IMG/VR virus record: IMGVR_UViG_3300042868_005761
Location: 32,001-96,000 of that record
Origin: a virus
Length of the DNA stretch: 64,000 nucleotides
Strand: one strand, 5' to 3'
In this document: in pieces, positions 15,341-44,461 of the stretch
Numbering within the stretch: the stretch's first letter is position 1
How the letters are laid out: each line of letters starts with the position of its first letter
The notes under the pieces: model-generated
Database searches by the model: none
The model's input: the letters and a program-made list of their open reading frames with translations, nothing else
What the model was told of the DNA's origin: nothing
Program-made: the position numbers and the translations under genes

Positions 15341-16240
15341 ATGACTTGTATCCTAGGATATTCAAATACAGGCATCGACACTACTACCGGCATGCCTACC
15401 AATATGGATCTTGATCCATTGCTTAAATCTGTTTTACTGAAAGCCGATAGCCGTGTTAGCTATGCTGATTATGGCTTTATGCTTAAGCAACCTAAGATCT
15501 TCATTCGTGATGATATTATGTTTGGTTATGCTGGTGTTCTTAAGGATGCCCAGCTATTTCAGCATACTTACTACGAGCTCATTCGCCCTGATGATGTAAG
15601 CGATATTGCTTATATTCATAATGTGCTTAACGAGATTATTCCTGCAAGTATGCAGAGTAAGATAGTTACTAAGGGTCGTGGCATGGACGATATGGATCCA
15701 CTACCAGCTAGCAATCTTAATTTGCTTGTTGGTTATCGTGGCAATCTTTATCATGTAGACGCGTTCCTTTGCGTGACCCTTCTAGCTGAGCCATTTCAGG
15801 CCACAGGTAGTGGGCAACCTACAGCTCTTGGCGCATACTCTCTAGCTAGACGCTTGGGCCTTCTTGACCCAGCTGACGACGATGAGACGCATGTCATGTT
15901 TGACGGCGAACAACTACTAGATACGGTTATGGATTCAGTTTGTGATATCCATATGGGAGTAGCTGGTCCATTCTGTATGGTCGAACAAGTATATAATACT
16001 GAAACGAAAGAAACAATCTATGTTGTAAAGGAAACTTACAGTGAAGTAGATACTATTTTCACTAAGCCCTTTCCTCATAAGCTATCAATCATTTATGATA
16101 CTGATGACCAATTTGTACAGTATGGCAAGTCTCATACTCCTAAAGTAAAATCAACTCCAAAGACAGCTTCAAATAAGAAGACTAAGGGTAAATCAAAAAA
16201 GAATTCTACAACCGATAAGAAAAAGAAAGGATCCGATTAA
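15341..16240 (+). CDS. Ntn-hydrolase protease (HslV/proteasome beta-like) with Lys-rich tail
   Basis: Starts M-T-C-I (Thr1 nucleophile), ADSRVS, conserved Lys (PKIF), GYAG, ATGSG; GAGGAG RBS before ATG 15341. Confidence 0.75.
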   Translation: MTCILGYSNTGIDTTTGMPTNMDLDPLLKSVLLKADSRVSYADYGFMLKQPKIFIRDDIMFGYAGVLKDAQLFQHTYYELIRPDDVSDIAYIHNVLNEIIPASMQSKIVTKGRGMDDMDPLPASNLNLLVGYRGNLYHVDAFLCVTLLAEPFQATGSGQPTALGAYSLARRLGLLDPADDDETHVMFDGEQLLDTVMDSVCDIHMGVAGPFCMVEQVYNTETKETIYVVKETYSEVDTIFTKPFPHKLSIIYDTDDQFVQYGKSHTPKVKSTPKTASNKKTKGKSKKNSTTDKKKKGSD

Positions 16241-19499: not shown

Positions 19500-19520
19500 G
19501 TGCGCTAACGCGCATTTTTT
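19500..19520 (+). terminator. Rho-independent terminator
   Basis: GTGCGC-TAAC-GCGCAT hairpin followed by a T-run. Confidence 0.6.
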
Positions 19521-19560
19521 GTTTGGATTTTTCTTCCAATTACTCACCAAAGGGGTACAA

Positions 19561-21507
19561 ATGTCAAAGTCAAACTCTATTGACTTTTCTGATATTAGTG
19601 AAAATGAAGTTATTGAAAAGTATTGGACACCTCCAACTCTTAATTACGGTGGTCAATATGGCGCATATGAGACAATCTATGCAACTGCAAACTACCTTAG
19701 TATCGGAGATGTAGGCGATCCGGACTGGAGAGAAGCTCGAAGACTACCTTTCGGAGATGAAGCACTTGAAGCTCTTTACCCTGGTAACAGAGCTCTTAGT
19801 TTTATTCAATATCCATGGGAGCATCCTGATGCTGACACTGACACAGGCAATCCTGTAAAAAGTTATCTTGAGAAGGACTCTGGTATTGAATGGGTTATCT
19901 TGGAGATGAACAAGACTGAAGTTGGCTCCGAACGATACAATCATTTGTCTGAGTTTCTTGCTGAAGCAAGAGATTACAACAATCGACAAGTCGAGGAGGA
20001 AGGCTTTATTCACGCGCCTTCTTGGGCAATGGATGCTATTATCTACTCTCAAGAGCATTCATACAATGAAGAGCATACAAAGCTAATTGAAGAATTCCTA
20101 CCTAAGGGATCTCAAGCTGCAAGAGTTATTTCCTCTGCTCCTTACGCGGATGGCAATACTATTGAGACAATGAGAGATATTCATCATGAATATACTATTT
20201 CATTTCAGGAGAAGGGTAGGCTTTATACTTTTGCCTTAAAAGATGGCAAGAAGACTTATGGACCTTACGGCGGGAAAATTAACTCTATTAAATTTTACAG
20301 GGGTAAAAATACTTGGGAGCCAAAGGCTCAAGAGTTTAGACTTGAGGAGATGTATAAGCTTTTACACTCTGCCTCAATTACTCCTATCTTTAATAGTAAG
20401 ATGGAACTAGAGCGAATCCAGCATCCTGATATTACTTTAGACAACCTTAAGTATGCCAAAGAGAATTACTCCTTGCTTGCTAATGCAATTCATGAGGCTA
20501 ATTTTATTACTGGCAGCATTGTTGGTCATATTAGAAAGCTAGAAGAAGACATCTTTTGGGAAACCTTAGATAAAAAGCTTCGCAAGGATAGAATTTATTC
20601 TGGGATTAGAGACGCAGCACGCGAGCTTAATCTATCAGGGATTACGCCTAGGCAGATTGGCAAAGACGGCATGTCTAAAATTTTAGAAGACTTTCCTAAG
20701 ATTCAAGCAGAGATTGAAACTAGAATTCAAACTCCATACTATGTTCTTAACGTGGGCCGGAATACAACTGTAGCTGTAACCCCTGATAAGACTTTAGCTG
20801 ATATGTTTAAAACTGGCAGTGCTGAAGATCTTCTTTACTTTATGCTCCCTGATAAGATGCGCATAAAGCTTGGTTCGCTTGAGGATACTATTACACAGTA
20901 CGGATACGACAGTGAAGAATATAGACGCTGGAAGATTGCAGCAACTAAATTCCTTACTTCTGACAAATCCAAATACACAACAAAGTCATTGCAAGAGATG
21001 GTTTGTCTTTATAACATAAACCATAAGGTTAAAGTTATTCGGCCAAAGACTCTAAGAGAATATGGTTGGCTTCTTGCCGAGATTCCATTTACTCGTACTC
21101 AAATCAATTTGATGAGTAGCTGTCTTGATTTGTATGGCAAGGCTATCATTGCTACTCAACAAAATAGTCCGTCAATCAAACCACTATATGCTAGAATCAA
21201 AAACTTTCTTGAATATCAGATTCAGAATAATAAGATTCCCAAGCATATTCTTTTGGAAATTGCGAACATGCGCAATATTTCTTTTGTATATAACTTAGAG
21301 AAAACCGAAATTACTAATAAAGCCGAAGCTAAGAAACTTTTTGAGGCTGGTCTTGCTAGTGATACTGAGATTAAAGTTGGAAATTATTTAAAGATTGAAT
21401 TAATGTTTGATTATGTTTTCGATAATCCAAGCGATGTCTTTCGATATATTTCTAATTTTGGTCCCAGCATTAAGGCTGTGCAACTTGCACAGTCAAGTTT
21501 AATTTGA
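19561..21507 (+). CDS. Large hypothetical protein (~648 aa)
   Basis: AAGGGG RBS before ATG 19561; no motif recognised. Confidence 0.75.
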   Translation: MSKSNSIDFSDISENEVIEKYWTPPTLNYGGQYGAYETIYATANYLSIGDVGDPDWREARRLPFGDEALEALYPGNRALSFIQYPWEHPDADTDTGNPVKSYLEKDSGIEWVILEMNKTEVGSERYNHLSEFLAEARDYNNRQVEEEGFIHAPSWAMDAIIYSQEHSYNEEHTKLIEEFLPKGSQAARVISSAPYADGNTIETMRDIHHEYTISFQEKGRLYTFALKDGKKTYGPYGGKINSIKFYRGKNTWEPKAQEFRLEEMYKLLHSASITPIFNSKMELERIQHPDITLDNLKYAKENYSLLANAIHEANFITGSIVGHIRKLEEDIFWETLDKKLRKDRIYSGIRDAARELNLSGITPRQIGKDGMSKILEDFPKIQAEIETRIQTPYYVLNVGRNTTVAVTPDKTLADMFKTGSAEDLLYFMLPDKMRIKLGSLEDTITQYGYDSEEYRRWKIAATKFLTSDKSKYTTKSLQEMVCLYNINHKVKVIRPKTLREYGWLLAEIPFTRTQINLMSSCLDLYGKAIIATQQNSPSIKPLYARIKNFLEYQIQNNKIPKHILLEIANMRNISFVYNLEKTEITNKAEAKKLFEAGLASDTEIKVGNYLKIELMFDYVFDNPSDVFRYISNFGPSIKAVQLAQSSLI

Positions 21508-22105: not shown

Positions 22106-22836
22106 TGGCTTTGCTAACACTAATAATTGCACTACTAGGTGTTGCTGGTGTTACATATACTCTTCTATCTACTCTTAATAAGATAATTAAAACAATCTAT
22201 TACTGGGAGCGAGAGATTATCTTTGTTGATTATGTCAATCCTAAGGAAATTTATATTCAATTTCCCAACGAAGCATTGACTAGCGATACTCTTTCAAAAG
22301 ATATCGAAGTAGATGATCTACATGAGAGGTTTCAATTTGCATCTAGTGAAAATGAAACTGTTTATGTTCCATATGCAAGCTTGCTAGCGGGAATTGTTGA
22401 TATCTTCTTGGGTTATAGAAATGTGATTGGAGCGCTGCAGAATGCAGAAGAAGAGTACAAGGAAGATCCAGAGGAGCTAGAGCTTTTCAAAGCTCCTAAG
22501 AAGTTTGACTTCCCTAGTCTCATGAATGGCCTCGATACCTATAACATATATACAAAATATACTTTATGGGACCTGCAAGAAGATAAAGAAATTCGCATTT
22601 CATCTGCCAGTGATTACTCTGCTTTTGTTAAGCTAGTAATTGAAAACAAGTCTAATCTTTCCTATAGAACACATTATATGGTCTATAAGAAGGTTGGTAC
22701 GAAAGAAACTGGTGAGCTTATAAGTGAATTGACTACTATCTTTAATATTGGCCAAGCTTATAATGATTTATCAAATAAAACCCCAGTAATGGATGTTACC
22801 CATTTGTCGGAGAAAAAGGATGCTGGAAAGAACTAA
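22105..22836 (+). CDS. Hypothetical protein with N-terminal membrane anchor
   Basis: Hydrophobic residues 2-24; TAATG coupling. Confidence 0.7.
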   Translation: MALLTLIIALLGVAGVTYTLLSTLNKIIKTIYYWEREIIFVDYVNPKEIYIQFPNEALTSDTLSKDIEVDDLHERFQFASSENETVYVPYASLLAGIVDIFLGYRNVIGALQNAEEEYKEDPEELELFKAPKKFDFPSLMNGLDTYNIYTKYTLWDLQEDKEIRISSASDYSAFVKLVIENKSNLSYRTHYMVYKKVGTKETGELISELTTIFNIGQAYNDLSNKTPVMDVTHLSEKKDAGKN

Positions 22837-23707
22837 TGATTTAATTCCATGTCTTGATCATGGCTATGTTAAGTTAATTGATGTTATGCCTCATGCTGAT
22901 GCAGAGGATCTTTCATTTAATACTAACATTGCTGACTATGCAATTATTGATGCTGCTAGAGTTAGTTACCAGTCAGGTACTACTCGTAAACAGTCAGACA
23001 AGCAATTGCTACGTTATCTTATGCGTCATTGGCATACTAGTCCATTTGAGATGGTAGAGTTTAAGTTCGAGATGCGCTTGCCTATCTTTGTTATGCGCCA
23101 GCTAGTTCGTCATAGGACTGCTAGCCTTAACGAGGAGAGCGCACGTTACAGTGTCATGGAAGATGTATTCTATGAACCTGATAGTCTTAGAGCTCAAAGT
23201 ACTACCAACAAGCAAGGCAGCGCTGAAGGAGAATTTAATCCCTTCATTGGTCCTAGAGAGAAAGCAACAGCAGTTATGAATCATCAGACTGATGAAGCCT
23301 ATAAGCTTTATCAACAGTTGATTGAGGCTGGTGTCAGTCGTGAACAGGCCCGCATGGTACTTCCTGTTAATCTCTATACACGTGTTGTATGGAAGTGTGA
23401 CTTGCTTAATCTTCTTAAGATGCTTAGGCTGCGCTTAGATCCTCATGCTCAGTATGAGATTCGAGTATTTGCAGAAGCAATTGCCGAATTTGTAAAGCTA
23501 CATTGTCCTTGGACTTGGGAAGCTTTCGAAGATTACTGGCAAGGTGGAGTTTCTTTTAGTAAGGTGGAACTAGATGCTTTACGCTATCTTATTCCCTTTA
23601 CTGGCAAAGAAGCTTTCAATGCAGCTATTCAAGGGACTAACTTTAGCAAAGGCGAGTTGCTAGAGTTTGAAGAGAAATTTAATAGGATTGCCAATGGGGA
23701 AAGTTAA
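22820..23707 (+). CDS. thyX: FAD-dependent thymidylate synthase
   Basis: AARVSY, HTSPFE, RHRTASLNEESARY, REQARMVLP, HAQYEIR. Confidence 0.95.
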   Translation: MLERTNDLIPCLDHGYVKLIDVMPHADAEDLSFNTNIADYAIIDAARVSYQSGTTRKQSDKQLLRYLMRHWHTSPFEMVEFKFEMRLPIFVMRQLVRHRTASLNEESARYSVMEDVFYEPDSLRAQSTTNKQGSAEGEFNPFIGPREKATAVMNHQTDEAYKLYQQLIEAGVSREQARMVLPVNLYTRVVWKCDLLNLLKMLRLRLDPHAQYEIRVFAEAIAEFVKLHCPWTWEAFEDYWQGGVSFSKVELDALRYLIPFTGKEAFNAAIQGTNFSKGELLEFEEKFNRIANGES

Positions 23708-24170
23708 GAACTTGTTACTTAATTTTCTTAATAATTTGGAAGAACGTCTAAGTGACAAAGTTAAAACACTCCAAGATAAAGTGGATTCTTTTCCTCAGGA
23801 GGAAGAGAAGATACCTTCTGAACTTTCTGAGGAGGAATGTCTTTTAATCAATACATTGTCTCAGGAATCTAATTCAAAAATTCTTAAATCTTTAGACTAT
23901 AAGACTTATCTTTTACTATCTATACTTCCAGAAATAAAGATAGAGGAAGATGAACCTAAGGCCTCACTGGATATTTTTATTACTGAGCCAGTACTTATGG
24001 AAAATTGGTTAGAGCATTTTTCAAATTTAAATCGTATTAAACAATTCCAAGCTCTTATTAAACACCCGAAAATACTTTCTGGTAGATATTTATCTGAAAG
24101 TAATGGAACTAATAGAAGGAATATTAAATGCCTCAGAGATTTACCGCTACTAAAGCAGACTTTGAACTAA
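23694..24170 (+). CDS. Hypothetical protein
   Basis: ORF overlapping the thyX stop. Confidence 0.6.
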   Translation: MGKVKNLLLNFLNNLEERLSDKVKTLQDKVDSFPQEEEKIPSELSEEECLLINTLSQESNSKILKSLDYKTYLLLSILPEIKIEEDEPKASLDIFITEPVLMENWLEHFSNLNRIKQFQALIKHPKILSGRYLSESNGTNRRNIKCLRDLPLLKQTLN

Positions 24171-24598
24171 AGAGTATCTCAGAATTACAAACATTGGAAA
24201 CTCCCATTCTTGTTAAAGCCGACAATGATTTTAAAGCAATAGGTTTTAATGTTATTTGGGAGCGAGAAGATCTTGACAAATTCAAATTGACTTGCTACTG
24301 TAAGGGAGTATTCACAGCAAACTCAAAAGAGTTTAAATCCTTAGCCAAGGATGAACCTCTGCTTGTTGTTAATAGTACGTTATATAAAGAATTATTTACT
24401 TTTGTCTATAACAGTCAAAAGGATGCTTCTGACAAGGATGTAGTTTCTACAGAGGAATTGCAATTCGTTTATACTGATTTCTTTGAAGATGAGGAAGTTT
24501 TATTCTTCTATCTACAAAAGTTATCTGAAGCATTTAATTGGAAATTGGAAAACAAGAATTTAATACTAGACAAGTGGGAATTATTTCCTCAAGAATAA
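24128..24598 (+). CDS. Hypothetical protein
   Basis: AAGGA RBS. Confidence 0.65.
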   Translation: MPQRFTATKADFELKSISELQTLETPILVKADNDFKAIGFNVIWEREDLDKFKLTCYCKGVFTANSKEFKSLAKDEPLLVVNSTLYKELFTFVYNSQKDASDKDVVSTEELQFVYTDFFEDEEVLFFYLQKLSEAFNWKLENKNLILDKWELFPQE

Positions 24599-24619
24599 AC
24601 AATACAATAAGGTGAAGTA

Positions 24620-25147
24620 ATGTCAAAGCAGTTTCAGATTGTTAAAAAGAGTAGTGCCCTTCAGATCTCTTACATTCCTGTAACCACTAAAGATAGTGAG
24701 TACGGTAAGCAAGTAGAGAAGGAGGGCGCAGTGTATCTCCAGTTTGCTCGTGCAACTGGTGGTAAAAATGAAGGTGGTCATAATACTTTTGACTGGGGTA
24801 ATAAGATTGTTTTTGCCGTAGGCATTAACGATGTCTACCAGATTCTTAGTTTCTATAATGGTGTAATGAACGGTTGGGTTGATACTTCACAGCGTCAAAC
24901 TCTAAACCTTATTCATGTGCCGCCTGGTGCTAGCGAGGATAACGTCAAGAAGCTTACGTTCCAGAGTGGCGTAGACAAGTATCTAGGTACTTACATGCTT
25001 ACGATGCGCAATGAGGCTGGCGATAGTATCTCTACCTCAATGACCTCAGGTGAGATGGATATCTTCATTAACCTGTGCCGTACAGCTAGTATCTATATGA
25101 CTGGCTTGCATCTTGATCTTCAGCGCGAGCGAGACCCTAAGAAGTAA
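24620..25147 (+). CDS. Whirly-family ssDNA-binding protein
   Basis: Colinear match to the recalled plant Whirly domain: FQIVKKSSAL~YSIYKGKAAL, KEGAVYLQFA~REGMVMLQFA, FDWGNKIVFAV~YDWSRKQVFSL, GEMDIF...YMTGLH~AEFAVL...YLLGWH. Confidence 0.75.
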   Translation: MSKQFQIVKKSSALQISYIPVTTKDSEYGKQVEKEGAVYLQFARATGGKNEGGHNTFDWGNKIVFAVGINDVYQILSFYNGVMNGWVDTSQRQTLNLIHVPPGASEDNVKKLTFQSGVDKYLGTYMLTMRNEAGDSISTSMTSGEMDIFINLCRTASIYMTGLHLDLQRERDPKK

Positions 25148-25155
25148 GAACACCT

Positions 25156-25704
25156 ATGAAGAATTTTTATTATAAACTATTAGATAAAATTCGAACTTAT
25201 ATGTGGACTGCGGCTTTTTCCTTTGGGTATGGCTTTAATCCTATACCTGGATTCCCATATAGGCACGGCCTCTGGACCCATATTGGTCTATTCTTTGATG
25301 ACGTAGAGCAAATGGTTATCTATAGATACGGGTCGACCGAAGGTCCAGACATAGACATGGACAAGACAGATTTCTTTGTTTATAAGTATAAAGAGTTGCT
25401 GCCTGAAGGTTACGATATCTACACTAAAACTACTTTTTTGCTTGCAAGTCTTGCACTAAAGCAGTATACTAGTGGCTTAGGATTCAATAGCCTAATGACT
25501 GGTACAAAGCTTCGAATCTATACGAATAGTCCATATGTGGCTGGAGAGCTTCGAAATCACTTAAGCAGATTCAAAGATCCTTACGGGTACAATCCGTATT
25601 TCTTCCAAGCAATGGGAATGAAATCAATGGATCAACATGGAATTCCTTATAACTTTAAACATGCAAACGGTAATTTATTCATAACTTACAGAAAAGAGGG
25701 CTAA
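25156..25704 (+). CDS. Hypothetical protein
   Basis: 182 aa ORF in the operon. Confidence 0.65.
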   Translation: MKNFYYKLLDKIRTYMWTAAFSFGYGFNPIPGFPYRHGLWTHIGLFFDDVEQMVIYRYGSTEGPDIDMDKTDFFVYKYKELLPEGYDIYTKTTFLLASLALKQYTSGLGFNSLMTGTKLRIYTNSPYVAGELRNHLSRFKDPYGYNPYFFQAMGMKSMDQHGIPYNFKHANGNLFITYRKEG

Positions 25705-26042
25705 TGGAACGCGAAACAGAAGTTAAGATTAAGATTTTAAACAAAGAATCAGAAGAAATTCCTTTTGCTTCTTTGCTCCAGGCGATTGTCAGTAAGATTA
25801 ATCAGCCTGAGGGTATTGAAAACACTAAAGGTAAGAAGGCAATCATGCTTATGATTGAGACTTTGCTTGCTCAGAATGATCCTATGCTTACTGCATTGGG
25901 TGTTCTTGGTGGCGAGAAAACTCTTAATGCGGCAGGTCTTCTACTTTTTGTTGCTTTTCAAGTCGGTAGCCTTGTGGGCTCAGGTGACTTTACTGTAGTC
26001 AGTGAAGATGAGTTGCTTACTCCAGATCCTGTAGCTGAGTAA
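25704..26042 (+). CDS. Hypothetical protein
   Basis: TAATG coupling, GAGG RBS. Confidence 0.65.
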   Translation: MERETEVKIKILNKESEEIPFASLLQAIVSKINQPEGIENTKGKKAIMLMIETLLAQNDPMLTALGVLGGEKTLNAAGLLLFVAFQVGSLVGSGDFTVVSEDELLTPDPVAE

Positions 26043-26066: not shown

Positions 26067-26216
26067 ATGTATTATTATTTATTAAAAAACAAATATGCCA
26101 TTAAACAGGCTATTGTAATCGCAGCGCCAGTCATTTTTGAGATTGGCCTAAACTTGCTCGCCAAGCACAATGAACGAAAGCTTGGCAAAACCAAAGAGGT
26201 AAATTATGGAAATTAG
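26067..26216 (+). CDS. Possible 49-aa protein (MYYYLLKNK...), not in the ORF track
   Basis: ATG 26067 to TAG 26216, overlapping the start of spoVG; weak GAG RBS. Confidence 0.35.
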   Translation: MYYYLLKNKYAIKQAIVIAAPVIFEIGLNLLAKHNERKLGKTKEVNYGN

Positions 26217-26625
26217 AGTTCGTGTGAATCCCCTTAGCAATCCTACTGGTCCCGTTGTCGCTATGGCTGACGTGACGCTTGTCACCGATGATGGCGATCT
26301 AATCCTTAAGGGATGGAAGGTTGTCAAGGGTAAGAACGGTCTATTTGCTGGTGCTCCTAGCGCCAAGCGTGGTGAGGCTTATGAGGATACTATTATTGCT
26401 CCCAAGGAGAGCGGCCAGTTCTTGCTTGACATTAAGCAGGCACTTGTTGATGAGTATGAGAGCCAGACGGGTGGCCAGACGCGCTCGTCATCTTCAGCTG
26501 CTAAGCCTGCTGCAAGTAAGCCAGCTACGAAGAGCAGTGTTCCTGACGCATATCTTGCAAAGAAGCCCGCTCCTGCTAAGGTTACAGCCAAGGCTAGCAC
26601 TTCAGATGAGTGGGAAACTGACTAA
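26206..26625 (+). CDS. spoVG: SpoVG-family nucleic-acid-binding protein with SSB-like disordered, acidic tail
   Basis: AMADVTL...LILKGWKVVKGKNGLFAGAPS.KRGEAYED; Ala/Lys/Pro linker ending SDEWETD. Confidence 0.8.
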   Translation: MEIRVRVNPLSNPTGPVVAMADVTLVTDDGDLILKGWKVVKGKNGLFAGAPSAKRGEAYEDTIIAPKESGQFLLDIKQALVDEYESQTGGQTRSSSSAAKPAASKPATKSSVPDAYLAKKPAPAKVTAKASTSDEWETD

Positions 26626-29394: not shown

Positions 29395-30513
29395 ATGAGT
29401 TTAGAAGAAACAGAATGGGAAACAGAAGAAGAATCTTCTTTTGCTACGCCGGGAGCTGTAACCTGGAATCCTAAAACTTTTAATGCTTTTAAGATAAGCA
29501 AGATTAAGCAATATGGCGAAGAACTTGTTCTTGTCACTGGCAAGGACAGCTTACCTACATTCAGCTTTGTTCCGACAAGTGATCCTTGTCTGGATAGTTT
29601 GCTTGGTGGATTTGGTGAGAATGCAGGATGGCCTCGTGGCACCTTTATTGAGATTGCGGGTGAGGAGTCGTCTGGTAAGACTACTCTGATGTACGAAGCA
29701 TTAGCTAGCTTTGCTAAGGCTTTTCCAGAACGTGGTATTGCATTTATCGACATGGAAGGTAACTTCGATGCCGAGTATGCACGTCACCTTGGAGTACCTG
29801 TGGACGACGAAAGATTTGTCTATAGTCTTCCTCAGAATGGCAAGCAAGCTCTTACCCTTCTAGACCAACTGATTCGTAGTGGTATGTTTTCATGCATTGG
29901 ATTAGATAGCTGGGCTGCTCTTAGTCCTCCTGCGTCTGCAGATAATAATGCAGAGGCTGGTGACGGCGCAATTGGCTGGCATGCTTTGCTTAGCTCTAAG
30001 GTGCTTGGCAGGCTTGCTACTTCATACAAGACCTATGACTGTACTTTAATTACGAGTAACCAGATGAGAGTTAATATTACTCCAATGGGCGCTCGCGGTA
30101 CTATCACTACAGGTGGCCGGGCTATTCGCTACTATGCTAGACTTCGTCTTAAGATTCTTCCTATCCCTGGTGATGGCAAAGAGAATCTCAGAAAGGTCCA
30201 GATTGTTAAGGCGCAGGGTGCGGCTCGTGCAGAGGACGAGGTAGAGATTAGTATTAAGTGGGGTATCGGTCTTGACCGAGTTGACTCGCTTATTACTATG
30301 GGTCTAGCTCAGAAGCATATCGTTGCTGCTGGTGCCTGGCTACAGGTTCCTGCTATTGCTCTTAAGGTTCAAGGCAGGAATAATCTTGCAGAACTACTTA
30401 GAAGTGATGGAGCTGCAAGAGCTTCTCTTTGTGATCTACTTGGAGTTAACCACTTTGAAGCTCGTTATCCGCTAACACGTAAGCGCAAAATCGCATACGA
30501 AACCAAGGACTAG
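29395..30513 (+). CDS. recA: RecA/UvsX recombinase
   Basis: GWPRG, EIAGEESSGKTT, FIDME, LDSWAAL, NQMR, TTGGRAIRYYA. Confidence 0.93.
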   Translation: MSLEETEWETEEESSFATPGAVTWNPKTFNAFKISKIKQYGEELVLVTGKDSLPTFSFVPTSDPCLDSLLGGFGENAGWPRGTFIEIAGEESSGKTTLMYEALASFAKAFPERGIAFIDMEGNFDAEYARHLGVPVDDERFVYSLPQNGKQALTLLDQLIRSGMFSCIGLDSWAALSPPASADNNAEAGDGAIGWHALLSSKVLGRLATSYKTYDCTLITSNQMRVNITPMGARGTITTGGRAIRYYARLRLKILPIPGDGKENLRKVQIVKAQGAARAEDEVEISIKWGIGLDRVDSLITMGLAQKHIVAAGAWLQVPAIALKVQGRNNLAELLRSDGAARASLCDLLGVNHFEARYPLTRKRKIAYETKD

Positions 30514-39640: not shown

Positions 39641-40822
39641 ATGGCGAAGAAACCAAAGAAAGATACAAAGGTTTCATTCCCAAGCTTAGAACATAAATTT
39701 TCCTTTTGGGGCACACTAGATCGAAGTATTGCTAATCAACCTAGCAGAATTCGTCCAGATATTAATCTGTATCCCAGTGAGGCAAGCGCTAAAATTAAAA
39801 ACGAGCACAACGAAGATATAATTATCGGCGGTTGTGTTCGCAAGTCATGGTTCAGAGCTATGATTCAGCGCATGGAAGCTACCAGCATCAAGCCTAATCT
39901 TGATCATGTGCTAGCTGCTGAACCTTTTACCCCGAAGGAACTTTGGAAGTTTTCATTAAGTAAGTACGCAGAAATAGCAATTACTGATGAAAGCAAAAGA
40001 GCTTGTGTATATGAAACAAATAGTCTTAGATTTAAATGGGAACTTCCATTCCCGTATAAATTATTGAAACCAGTAATTAGTGGTGAATTAGATCTTGCAG
40101 TTACAATACCTGACAAAGAAGACTATGAACTCCCAACCTTTGATCGAGACGGCAATCCTTCAATAACTTCTAGTGATATTAAGACTAATAACATTGTTGG
40201 CATTGAGATTAAAAGTATCTCAGGATACAAAGGACCTCGACAAGTATTTGGAGTAAAGAGCAAGAAAGGCCACTGGATTAGTTTACCTGAGCCAAAGCCT
40301 GAGCATTTACTTCAGTCAATCCTTTACCATATGTATTTCTGTATTCTTAAAAAGGAATATAGATACTGGAAGCTTGCATATATCAACCGTGAAAACGGTG
40401 AGCGAAAAGAATTTGATATTGATCTTATAAAAGAGAAAGTCGCAAATGGTAAGTTCTTACATAGAGTTTACGTAGACAGAGAGCCATACAAGCATGTCTT
40501 GTATGCCGAACATATACTTCAACGCTATCAGGAACTTCATACTCACTTAGAGAATGAAACACTTCCAAACAGAGACTTCGAACTTTTCTATGATCAAACT
40601 AAAATAGCGATCTTAGCTAGCAGAAAAGAATTATCTAAGATGGACACAGAGCTTTTTGACAAAGGCAAGAAAGTCAAGAAAGGTGATTGGAATTGCAGCT
40701 ATTGTCCATTCAAGAATATATGCTATGAAGCCAATGGTACTCCTAGAGATTTAACGAAATTGGATGTTACTGACATAGAAAGAATTAGCACAATGGAGGG
40801 TTCCGATGAAGAAGACGAATAG
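39641..40822 (+). CDS. Cas4/AddB-like PD-(D/E)XK exonuclease with Fe-S cysteines
   Basis: YPSE...GCVRK, SGELD, EIKS, QSILY, CSYCPFKNIC. Confidence 0.8.
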   Translation: MAKKPKKDTKVSFPSLEHKFSFWGTLDRSIANQPSRIRPDINLYPSEASAKIKNEHNEDIIIGGCVRKSWFRAMIQRMEATSIKPNLDHVLAAEPFTPKELWKFSLSKYAEIAITDESKRACVYETNSLRFKWELPFPYKLLKPVISGELDLAVTIPDKEDYELPTFDRDGNPSITSSDIKTNNIVGIEIKSISGYKGPRQVFGVKSKKGHWISLPEPKPEHLLQSILYHMYFCILKKEYRYWKLAYINRENGERKEFDIDLIKEKVANGKFLHRVYVDREPYKHVLYAEHILQRYQELHTHLENETLPNRDFELFYDQTKIAILASRKELSKMDTELFDKGKKVKKGDWNCSYCPFKNICYEANGTPRDLTKLDVTDIERISTMEGSDEEDE

Positions 40823-41903
40823 CAACTCGGTAGTTAGTCTGAATACATTAGTTCCTAAGAAAACAAGGAACTATACACTCAGTCTTGAGCCTCGAATCTC
40901 TGACTCTTCTTCTGTAATCTATGGAATGGAAAAGGATAGTATTGCTTATCTTAGCGACTACATTAAAAACCATCCTAGAATGAAAGATGCCGAGATGCAT
41001 CGTCTTGCTTGTAAATACTTCTACTTGAAGCAGCAGTATACACATTTAAAAGACCGCTTAGGTGCTGTTGAACTTAAACTAGAATCACCCAATGACGCTA
41101 TAACAACTAGTCTTTTAGTTGCCGAGAAAGAAGAGTTATCTTATCTTCTAGAATTAATTCCATACAAGGAAGTTTTTCTAGAACTAGAAGAGACTCTAGT
41201 CGCACATAATCTTCGTTTGATAGTGAAAATTGCAAGTAGCTATGGCGGTAAAGGATTATCTGTCGATGACCTAATACAAGAAGGTGTCTTTGGGTTTATG
41301 TATGCAATAGATAGATATGACCCAAACAAAAACGTTAAACTCGGAACATATGCGACTTGGTGGATTAAGCAGAAGATTACTCGTGCTTTGTCTAATAAAG
41401 CTAGATTAATTCGCTTGCCAGTCCATCTAACAATTGATATAACTAAAGTCCTTGGAGCAATACGGAAACATAATATTCCTTACTCTAGTAAGAATATTGG
41501 TAAACTTTCTAACCTTACCAGGATGAAAGAGTCAAGTGTTTCTCATGCCTTTGGTTATATTTATAGCTATACACCATACAATCAGATTGCCTTATACAAT
41601 AATGATCAGGCATTTTCTGAAGATCCGATGACACTTATAGTGGACAAGGAAAAGAAAGATGAACAAATCGAAGATGTAAATTTGAACTTAGATCAAAAAA
41701 CTTTTTGTTCTAATTTCTCTTCGGTAATTGACAAATTGAATACTCTTGAACAAGAGTTCATCTATAGAAAATATGGTATTCAAGGCTACAATGAGCATAC
41801 TCCAATTGAAATAAGAGAATGGCTTAAGAGTGTTAATATTAAACAACCTATCTTTTTTAAGAAAACTGTTCTTATAAAGATAGCTACTGAAATACTAAAA
41901 TAG
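40806..41903 (+). CDS. RNA polymerase sigma-70-family factor
   Basis: HNLRLIVKIA, DLIQEG, TYATWWIKQKITRAL, RLIRLPVH; degenerate region 4. Confidence 0.88.
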   Translation: MKKTNSNSVVSLNTLVPKKTRNYTLSLEPRISDSSSVIYGMEKDSIAYLSDYIKNHPRMKDAEMHRLACKYFYLKQQYTHLKDRLGAVELKLESPNDAITTSLLVAEKEELSYLLELIPYKEVFLELEETLVAHNLRLIVKIASSYGGKGLSVDDLIQEGVFGFMYAIDRYDPNKNVKLGTYATWWIKQKITRALSNKARLIRLPVHLTIDITKVLGAIRKHNIPYSSKNIGKLSNLTRMKESSVSHAFGYIYSYTPYNQIALYNNDQAFSEDPMTLIVDKEKKDEQIEDVNLNLDQKTFCSNFSSVIDKLNTLEQEFIYRKYGIQGYNEHTPIEIREWLKSVNIKQPIFFKKTVLIKIATEILK

Positions 41904-41911
41904 AGGAATGT

Positions 41912-44461
41912 ATGATTACGAATCTGAGTGAGTTAGTAGAAACAATTGATAGAATCCCAGTCTCTCAGTACCTTGAGAAGATTGGTGTTGAGGTTACAAA
42001 GAATAAGAAAGTTGTCTGTGTCAATCCAGACCATGACGACCATAATCCTAGTATGCATGTTTACGATGACCGTGGATATGTAAAGTGTTTTAGTTGCGGC
42101 TTTTATGGTAGTTCTTTGAACGTCCACGCAATTAGAACTGGCCGGCAACTTGCTGGTGATGAGTTTGTTGATGTTGCTAAGGAAGTAGCAGATCTATTTG
42201 CTATTGACTATAACTTTGGCAAGCCAAGCCCAGAGGAAATCGAGCGTCAAAAGTATTTTCAAGTATATCATGAGGTCTCCTCATCTATTACCAAGATTAC
42301 TGATACTGCTCACCCAGATTTGTATAAGTACATTGCAGAGCGCTCATGGAATGCAGATAAGCTGCTTGAAATGGGCGTTGGCTATGTAGAGATTGGAGAT
42401 GGGCTTACTGTACTAGATAAGCTAAGAGAAGAGCGTCCTGACCAGGGATTCGGCATTTATGACACAAGTATGTTTGCCGATCCTCAGAACAAACTAGTAA
42501 CCACATTCTATGACGAGAAGGGCAGAACCGTTGGCTTTGCAGCTCGTAAGATTACTTGGCAAAAAGGCGACAAGGATAAGTGGGTAAACACTAGTGGCAT
42601 TGTTCCAATCTTTGATAAGAGCAACCTGCTTTATAATCATAAGATTGCCAAGCAAGCTATTAAGGCAGGAGCTGATACTCTGTATGTCTTTGAAGGTCAG
42701 AGTAGTGCAATTACTTGTTACCATAACGGCCTTAAAGCTGCTGTGGCAGCAGGTGGTTCTAGTCTAACTCCCGGTCAAGCTAGACTTCTTAAGAATCTTA
42801 ATCCTAGTAAGTATGTACTTTGCTTTGACCCTGATGATGCAGGTATTAAATGCACCATCAATGCCATTAGAGAACATGCTAGCACTCTAGGCGGCCATAA
42901 GCTTTATGTTAAAGATCTTCGTGTTAACGGCGATCTTGACCCAGATGAGTTTATCAGAGCTAATGACATTGAAGTATTCAAGACTGTTGAGAATGTTCCT
43001 GCTTTTGACTGGCTTTTCGGTGAGCTAACTAGAGAGAATGGATCCCGCGAGGTTATGCTTGATCTTATTAAGCTTATCTCTAGCTTCCATAGTCCTCTGG
43101 AGCGAGAAGATCTAGCTCGTAGTCTTAGTATGAAGACTGGTTACAGCTTCAATACTATTACTGAAGAGATTGATAATATTGTAAATGAGAAGGAACTTAC
43201 TCAGAAGCAGAAGGTAAAAGACCTTACTGATCAGGCTATGCTTGATATCCGTAAGAATCCTACCAGTGCTATCTCAGTTCTTGATGGTCTTAGAACCAGG
43301 ATTGAGAGCATTCAGGCTGATACTAATACCAGTGTTAGCAGCGGTGACTTCTATCTTCAAGAGATGCTTCGTTTTCAAGATGAGGCAGAAGCTTTCGAGG
43401 CTGTGTTCCCTGGCTTCCAAATGCCACTCATGCCCGGATTTGCCAGCGCATTTAACAATGACTGGTCAAGAGGTCGCATGATTTGTATTGGCGGCGAAGA
43501 GAATGCAGGTAAGAGTTCATTCAGTAGTTTTACATGTTACAACTTAGCACTACCAGAAGCTGACAACAATCTTCATGTTCTTTACATGACTATTGACGAT
43601 AGCGTTCCTGAGTTGTTTCCTAAGTTTGTAGCTATGGCTGGTCGTCATCGTACTCGTGGTTATCGCGGATATGAGGATGGCTTTCCTTTAGAGATCAACC
43701 ATATCGTTCGTCCTAAGTATTGGGGCAAGATCCTTAGGGATATTGATCCCCAGCTAGAGCAAGATATGCTTTATGCTTACAAGGTTGGCTATCAAGAGAT
43801 TATGAAGATGGCCCGCGAAGAACGTCTAGTGCTTTTCGGCATTCCACATGCCCAGAACCTAGAAGACTTTGAGCGTGCTATTGCTAGCTTCCGCAAGAAG
43901 TATCCTAGCGATAACATCTTTGCTTACTTGGATAATATCCATAAGCTTCCACTTGGTAACGCTGATGCACGTCTTGCATTCAAGGATATCTCTAATCGCG
44001 TTAAGATGGCTTCAGTCCGTCACAACATTGCTATTGGCGGTACCCTAGAATACAACAGCGACTCGAATAAGAGGCAGAAGGATCAGCGCCCGACTAACTC
44101 TAGCCTAGCAGAGTCTCGTGCCTTTAGATACGACGCTAGCGCCATTGTACACGTTTATAATCATAAGCATGTATTTGGTGATAAGAGTAACTGGTACCAT
44201 GAGACTAAGAGCGTTAGCCGTCCTGGTGTAGTCCAGAAGTTCCCAGTCATCGAAGCAATCATTGGCAAGAACAAGATCTCAGGTGACAAAGACACTCACT
44301 GTTTCCTATTTCATCCTACGAGTTCTTGGTTCGAAGAAGTTGACACCTATGAGATTGCTCAGGTTGTCAATGCCAGAGACCAGGCTGATGATAAGAACAA
44401 CAAAGACTATGCCAAGAAAGAAGATGTTGACGTCTGGGCTTTAGAGGATGACGATGCCTAG
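41912..44461 (+). CDS. Fused DNA primase-helicase (CHC2 zinc finger, TOPRIM, DnaB-like)
   Basis: CVNPDH...CFSC, GFAAR, FEG, FDPDDAG, DPDE; GGEENAGKS, LDNIH, KNK. Confidence 0.9.
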   Translation: MITNLSELVETIDRIPVSQYLEKIGVEVTKNKKVVCVNPDHDDHNPSMHVYDDRGYVKCFSCGFYGSSLNVHAIRTGRQLAGDEFVDVAKEVADLFAIDYNFGKPSPEEIERQKYFQVYHEVSSSITKITDTAHPDLYKYIAERSWNADKLLEMGVGYVEIGDGLTVLDKLREERPDQGFGIYDTSMFADPQNKLVTTFYDEKGRTVGFAARKITWQKGDKDKWVNTSGIVPIFDKSNLLYNHKIAKQAIKAGADTLYVFEGQSSAITCYHNGLKAAVAAGGSSLTPGQARLLKNLNPSKYVLCFDPDDAGIKCTINAIREHASTLGGHKLYVKDLRVNGDLDPDEFIRANDIEVFKTVENVPAFDWLFGELTRENGSREVMLDLIKLISSFHSPLEREDLARSLSMKTGYSFNTITEEIDNIVNEKELTQKQKVKDLTDQAMLDIRKNPTSAISVLDGLRTRIESIQADTNTSVSSGDFYLQEMLRFQDEAEAFEAVFPGFQMPLMPGFASAFNNDWSRGRMICIGGEENAGKSSFSSFTCYNLALPEADNNLHVLYMTIDDSVPELFPKFVAMAGRHRTRGYRGYEDGFPLEINHIVRPKYWGKILRDIDPQLEQDMLYAYKVGYQEIMKMAREERLVLFGIPHAQNLEDFERAIASFRKKYPSDNIFAYLDNIHKLPLGNADARLAFKDISNRVKMASVRHNIAIGGTLEYNSDSNKRQKDQRPTNSSLAESRAFRYDASAIVHVYNHKHVFGDKSNWYHETKSVSRPGVVQKFPVIEAIIGKNKISGDKDTHCFLFHPTSSWFEEVDTYEIAQVVNARDQADDKNNKDYAKKEDVDVWALEDDDA

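Follow-up and report, generated by a model that had tools for sequence, protein, structure and literature searches.

A Whirly-Family Protein Encoded by an Uncultured Freshwater Tailed Phage

Whirly proteins are called plant-specific or unique to plants in two recent plant papers (PMC11712025, PMC11359715), and elsewhere a "eukaryotic component" of organelle nucleoids found mainly in plants (PMC4758235). A gene in an environmental phage genome, described in an earlier note as encoding a full-length homologue of the plant proteins, raises the question whether the family extends to phages and what such a protein would do there. In plants, Whirly tetramers bind single-stranded DNA (ssDNA) by phosphate contacts and by base stacking between sheets of subunits that lie next to each other. 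They keep microhomology-mediated rearrangements in check and show partial redundancy with further organellar single-stranded DNA-binding proteins (SSBs), and K67 is needed for the assembly of 24-mers (PMC3245945). The window analysed here is a stretch of 64,000 nucleotides, bases 32001–96000 of a source record of 176,231 bp that CheckV rates as 100% complete. Unless marked otherwise, positions are those of the window. The gene and the element preceding it are:

24620..25147, plus strand: Whirly-domain gene, a 175-aa open reading frame (ORF) encoding a bare domain without transit peptide, acidic tail or SSB tip
24610..24615, plus strand: Shine–Dalgarno-like AGGTGA, 4 nt 5' of the Whirly ATG, read from the sequence

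The Pfam comparison proposed in the earlier note gave a match to the Whirly model PF08536 that scores 32.8 bits, where the cut-off is 23, with an E value of 7e-8 and coverage of positions 2–131 of the 136 in the profile. The match was recovered in a whole-genome scan of the record, and no match to the OB-fold SSB family PF00436 was found at the gene. Since a phmmer search of the PDB with the single protein was borderline (1l3a, E 0.22), a family profile was needed. It was built around a profile search run exhaustively over 1.84 billion representatives, which returned 80 hits, nearly all of them 135–180 aa long. One hit of 953 aa (P0085) was rejected as a false positive, being an S8 peptidase, and was left out of the family alignment of 79 sequences. 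PF08536 is matched individually by 78 of these 79 relatives, and the part of the family that this one narrow profile reaches amounts to no fewer than 78 clusters at 50% identity. All solved plant Whirly proteins, PBF-2 p24, AtWHY1/2/3 and StWHY2 (1l3a, 4koo, 4kop, 4koq, 3n1h), are matched end to end by the family profile with E values of 1.6e-26 to 6.4e-24. A Whirly protein of the green alga Acetabularia was found by BLASTP with 27% identity over 168 aa (E 1e-13).

The motif matches listed in the earlier note are real and lie far beyond chance. The phmmer alignment pairs EGAVYLQFA...FDWGNKIVF with EGMVMLQFA...YDWSRKQVF of PBF-2 p24, and the family profile is colinear with p24 at YKGKAAL, YDWsrK, FFHDP, K.L, AEF and LGW. 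Two residues, W59 and H99, do not vary at all among the phage members, and A13, G36, K62, D71, K110 and E145 are each conserved in at least 90% of them. These columns pair with the same or similar residues of the plant chains. Common to both groups are the tryptophan of YDW and the lysine following it, the histidine of FHDP, K.L, the glutamate of AEF and a C-terminal G(W/L). One of the listed pairs stands only in part: the hallmark KGKAAL corresponds to K9-K-S-S-A13-L14 in the window protein (KKSSAL), identical at three of six positions. Its first and fifth columns are well kept across the family (K or R at position 9 in 75 of 79 sequences, A at position 13 in 72 of 79), whereas the second lysine, the one required for 24-mers in plants, is Ser11 in the window protein and Lys in only 24 of the 79 members.

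Further differences to the plant proteins concern the overall build. The domain begins near residue 5, and the chain stops about eight residues past the last helix, without an organelle-targeting peptide and without the C-terminal variable tail. Identity to the plant chains is only 14–21%, and the phage protein is known from sequence and models. With a pI of 7.8 and 19 K+R against 18 D+E it is near neutral, while the family median pI is 8.6. No PHROGs family was found for the Whirly protein, and tblastn of the window protein and two relatives (P0016, P0013) against 50,697 GenBank phage records gave no match. A UniProt entry named 'Whirly transcription factor [uncultured Caudovirales phage]' (A0A6J5NR37) is likewise a bare Whirly domain from an environmental tailed phage, with 32% identity and a TM score of 0.82 normalised to the target. 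Its label is automatic, and it has 141 aa compared to 175 aa in the clade of the window protein, which has a conserved linkage to SpoVG.

The predicted fold is in line with this assignment. The AlphaFold2 model (pLDDT 94.8) exhibits a beta4-alpha-beta4-alpha layout with strand blocks at residues 5–67 and 94–141 and helices at 69–83 and 143–161; there is no segment with a pLDDT below 50 and no long tail. In a Foldseek search of the PDB the best 13 matches are all plant Whirly chains (TM 0.67–0.79, E ~1e-10), followed by the trypanosome proteins MRP1/2 (E ~5e-4, TM ~0.55) and then PUR-alpha. Modelling of four copies gave an ipSAE of 0.93, compared to 0.00 for the best of three controls. For calibration, 20 of 30 proteins whose solved structures are pairs of one chain attain this ipSAE mark, compared with 1 of 23 whose structures are single chains. 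At least 89% of the contacts are common to three runs, with a partner pLDDT of 90. The modelled interface is formed by two helices (residues 69–86 and 142–173), and each copy contacts two neighbours. A homotetrameric ring like that of the plant proteins is thus predicted by the model. As plant tetramers are solved, the prediction may simply reproduce them; it indicates likeness and not assembly of the window protein. Membership of PF08536 above the cut-off, a colinear whole domain and the same fold identify the phage protein, as judged from sequence and model, as a true Whirly member and a homologue of the plant organellar proteins, with which it also shares the predicted helix-mediated homotetramer.

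The order of the structural matches also bears on the substrate. Maize WHY1 functions in intron splicing, and the phage protein could similarly act mainly on RNA as an mRNA chaperone or regulator, perhaps together with SpoVG. Plant WHY1 also binds RNA (PMC3245945). The next-best structural matches, MRP1/2, are RNA-binding proteins that share a Whirly-type fold and a tetrameric whirligig arrangement (predicted for the window protein), but they are heterotetramers and match with only 12% identity. A phage case is ChmC of the Chimalliviridae (PhiPA3 gp61, PhiKZ gp67), a homotetramer of Whirly fold that binds single-stranded nucleic acid, as predicted for the window protein, and that prefers single-stranded RNA; it has a disordered tail rich in N and G, and its site of action is the phage nucleus (PMC11077065). 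ChmC has the fold without detectable Whirly sequence similarity, whereas the window protein has significant similarity and lacks such a disordered, condensate-forming tail. Moreover, in sequence and structure the window protein resembles the ssDNA-binding plant proteins (E 1e-10, TM ~0.7) much more than it does MRP1/2, and its neighbours are DNA-metabolism genes. Even with the recurrent SpoVG linkage counted in its favour, we consider a mainly RNA-directed role unlikely.

The source is an uncultured 176-kb tailed phage from freshwater (a lake). The assignment to the tailed phages follows from a large terminase subunit that passes the Pfam cut-off, together with portal-like and HK97-capsid-like matches, which are sub-threshold. 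No sequenced phage is close to it: megablast with 12 kb of the window gave no match, the identity of its DnaE to known phage DnaE is at most 31%, and PHROGs contain no family for six large minus-strand proteins. Compared with seven near-identical IMG/VR copies, the Whirly gene has a dN/dS of 0.007–0.043 at dS values of up to 1.16, which points to strong purifying selection on a working gene. The gene is part of a long array of co-oriented genes. As the gap to the upstream ORF amounts to only 21 nt, the two are probably co-transcribed. The genes of the window referred to below are:

19519-21507, plus strand: 662-aa ORF without a family match
22793..23707, plus strand: ThyX (PF02511, E 1.8e-54), the upstream neighbour, kept in synteny
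25156..26042, plus strand: two small ORFs (182 aa and 112 aa) that separate Whirly from SpoVG
26206..26625, plus strand: SpoVG-domain gene (PF04026, 29.8 bits against a cut-off of 29.6, which it barely passes)
29395..30513, plus strand: RecA recombinase (PF00154, E 1.8e-41), about 4 kb downstream of Whirly
40806-41903, plus strand: sigma-70 region-2 protein, adjoining the primase/helicase gene
41912-44461, plus strand: fused primase/DnaB-like helicase of 849 aa (PHROG primase and helicase families)

The Whirly gene is thus surrounded by ThyX, SpoVG, NrdJ, RecA, PhoH, a split DnaE and the primase-helicase. The position near spoVG, nrdJ and recA given in the earlier note is borne out: Pfam matches confirm SpoVG and RecA nearby, and the order including NrdJ is kept at the locus of a 46%-identical orthologue, where IMPDH-like, UDG, ThyX, Whirly, two ORFs, SpoVG, NrdJ and RecA follow each other. 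In a relative of this identity (L011) a 661-aa counterpart of the 662-aa ORF lies between UDG and ThyX. In a 35%-identical member, too, SpoVG follows downstream of Whirly at a distance of two to three genes, and the linkage is present at the loci of the relatives P0009 and P0092. Other members lie directly after PhoH and near RNR, dUTPase, rIIB, DnaE or RecA. Sequence, fold and genome context all support the claim of a full-length, phage-encoded homologue of plant Whirly.

Three of the seven phages have a Whirly protein that is 98–99% identical, but only 36–48% identity is left in the ORF directly before it and in the one two genes further on. The two ORFs concerned lie at 24128-24598 and 25704-26042; in the same phages (L001, L002, L006) Whirly, ThyX and NrdJ are 95–99% identical. 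On either side of the Whirly block, these ORFs have the look of small exchangeable cassettes within an otherwise conserved array, and on these comparisons Whirly appears as a conserved core gene in mosaic surroundings. The 182-aa and 112-aa ORFs have no Pfam, PHROG or Atlas match (for the 182-aa ORF the Atlas gave nothing usable), and counterparts with 30–33% identity occupy the same position in a phage with a 46–48%-identical Whirly.

Some features of the neighbours deserve separate mention. The SpoVG-domain protein carries a fused basic tail of about 55 aa that is rich in Ala, Pro, Lys and Ser and runs into an acidic end (...SDEWETD); the tail is reminiscent of those of histone H1 or HU type. 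DnaE is split into two ORFs in the window, and in another Whirly-carrying phage contig (L013:16220-18742) DnaE exhibits a faint LAGLIDADG match, possibly from an intein or a homing endonuclease insert.

The neighbourhood offers a further reading, in which the protein is an ssDNA-binding transcription cofactor of a phage RNA polymerase or sigma factor that stabilises melted or hairpin promoter DNA. Precedents exist in N4-like phages, where N4 SSB and Drc stabilise promoter DNA, and in plants, where PBF-2 acts at the elicitor response element. The window holds the sigma-70-type gene listed above, and in distant relatives, too, Whirly is linked to SpoVG, a regulator that binds nucleic acids. Whirly itself first came to light as a transcription activator that binds ssDNA (PMC3245945). 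Against this, the gene has no linked promoter element, and distant members adjoin PhoH, RNR or RecA and not polymerase genes. The repeated occurrence of SpoVG near Whirly agrees with a regulatory role no less than with that of an ssDNA guard, and it suits the transcriptional and the RNA-directed reading alike. On balance, a transcriptional function appears rather improbable to us.

The earlier note had inferred that the protein acts as the phage SSB or as a recombination guard. The first of these proposals is weakened by two further genes, 12–16 kb before the start of the window:

record 15840-16124: OB-fold SSB gene (PF00436, 63.4 bits)
record 20053-20355: second, separate OB-fold SSB gene (PF00436, 78.7 bits)

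Both encode intact OB-fold SSBs, one ending in ...DIDPF and one in ...PTDPF; an acidic tip ending in DPF is the usual partner-recruiting tip of SSBs. The frame overlapping the gene at 15840-16124 is very rich in Arg, Pro and Ala, suggesting that this locus is unusually GC-rich for a phage of 38% GC. Whirly and the OB-fold SSBs would have ssDNA as presumed substrate and tetramers in common (predicted for Whirly), but differ in fold. The window protein ends in ...RERDPKK without an acidic recruiting tip, and an SSB-like tip is found in none of the 79 aligned family members. As the principal replicative SSB, Whirly would coat lagging-strand ssDNA and recruit replisome partners; its place within a replication and nucleotide-metabolism array and the high affinity of Whirly proteins for ssDNA (PMC3245945) speak for such a role. 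Because two complete, tipped OB-fold SSBs are encoded in the same genome and Whirly has no tip, we regard it as very unlikely that Whirly is the main SSB.

Beside these two ordinary SSBs, Whirly is most likely an accessory binder of DNA (or RNA) and not the main one. The second proposal of the earlier note, the recombination guard, is plausible by analogy and from the gene neighbourhood, with RecA 4 kb downstream and a conserved linkage to the DNA-metabolism module. The proximity of RecA is also the reason why we prefer an accessory ssDNA guard. Overall, we lean slightly towards a minimal Whirly-domain tetramer that would serve as an accessory ssDNA guard working with RecA and would probably not be the replicative SSB. 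The protein would be expressed from the early or middle DNA-metabolism gene array of the phage, and four copies would assemble through the two helices into a ring with the beta-sheets pointing outward as blades. From the Whirly fold and the modelled tetramer we infer binding of single-stranded nucleic acid, presumably with little sequence preference and with bases stacked between the sheets of neighbouring subunits. High affinity and largely sequence-independent binding of ssDNA would be expected by extension from the plant proteins. Bound in this way, Whirly would coat resected or exposed ssDNA and suppress annealing at microhomologies, leaving repair to RecA. It may act as plain tetramers, which are likelier than 24-mer shells because Ser replaces the lysine of the plant 24-mer. 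The near-neutral charge of the protein and its only partly kept KGKAAL motif count against this overall reading.

The proposed division of labour between Whirly, a bacterial-type SSB and RecA is the one found in plant organelles, and the three occur side by side in the phage genome as well. The set of primase-helicase, RecA, bacterial-type SSBs and Whirly partly mirrors the replication and recombination toolkit of plant organelles. The polymerase of the phage, however, is a split DnaE and not of the PolA type.

Family members are phage-like in every context examined, usually beside PhoH, RNR, ThyX, SpoVG or RecA. A scan of 185,579 prokaryotic species genomes matched contigs of two metagenome-assembled genomes (MAGs), a number that cannot count cellular members in general since it rests on a single narrow motif (YDWx[NKQ]KIxFA). 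The contigs are CAYOWH010000001.1 (158 kb, 'Bacteriovoracaceae'; L016) and QMTU01000002.1 ('Thermoplasmata'; L017). Both carry phage-type arrays (PhoH–Whirly–RNR; a dATP/dGTP diphosphohydrolase), and L016 shares identical match coordinates and similar scores with the IMG/VR contig L019. Among 602 genomes in two phylum samples of 301 each, PF08536 was found in two, only the seed genome in each sample. An interpretation of the two hits as cellular Whirly genes was rejected in view of the phage-like arrays, the IMG/VR match and the single positive seed genome per 301 of each phylum; by their gene content they look like phage contigs binned into MAGs. A search of 14 model prokaryotes, a Synechococcus and an alphaproteobacterium among them, gave no PF08536 match.

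A divergent Whirly relative was observed in a cultured phage, the jumbo Acinetobacter phage vB_AbaM_ME3, as the 121-aa 'hypothetical protein' ME3_95 (KU935715.1 97413-97778; minus strand of locus L031:6414-6779). It was related to the family by hhalign (97.8% probability, E 7e-13), genome scan (E 1e-14) and Foldseek (TM 0.72), and the Pfam Whirly model did not detect it. ME3_95 is N-terminally shortened and does not keep the invariant His. It lies on the same strand as genes for a mismatch endonuclease, RecA, an exonuclease and RecQ.

In our literature search no paper was found on phage members of the Whirly sequence family; the sole phage Whirly case found there is ChmC with its fold-level resemblance (PMC11077065). 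Databases already contain phage members, namely A0A6J5NR37 in BFVD/UniProt and Atlas viral-protein clusters with PF08536. The window gene is hence a new, well-supported member of a known family whose host range is under-described; it does not represent a new kind of system. Particular to this copy are its coexistence with two tipped OB-fold SSBs, the conserved SpoVG link and Ser at the 24-mer position.

The phage branch also touches on the origin of the plant proteins. In a tree of 79 rows, in which the Acetabularia Whirly is the only eukaryotic sequence, the alga pairs with P0075, a sequence without known source. It is placed inside the phage diversity with no long separating branch, a placement of one algal sequence in a star-like tree with strong support on 6 of 76 branches. 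No direction of transfer is read from this tree. That phage genes were the evolutionary source of plant and algal organellar Whirly is a doubtful proposition at present. If true, Whirly would not be a plant invention and would join the phage-derived organellar replication proteins, of which the Twinkle-type primase-helicase is one.

Within the Whirly sequence family, the phage branch that includes the window gene is large, strongly conserved and unstudied, and its sequences are material for a phylogeny of plant Whirly origin. If binding follows the plant proteins, a non-OB ssDNA-binding fold would be common in the replication modules of uncultured phages. The phage proteins are small, have no transit peptide and are maybe easily expressed, which would make them useful for the biochemistry of Whirly–ssDNA interactions, and they include natural variants at the 24-mer lysine. 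The genome studied here also provides a test case for why Whirly is kept beside OB-fold SSBs and RecA, a combination that is found in plant organelles as well.
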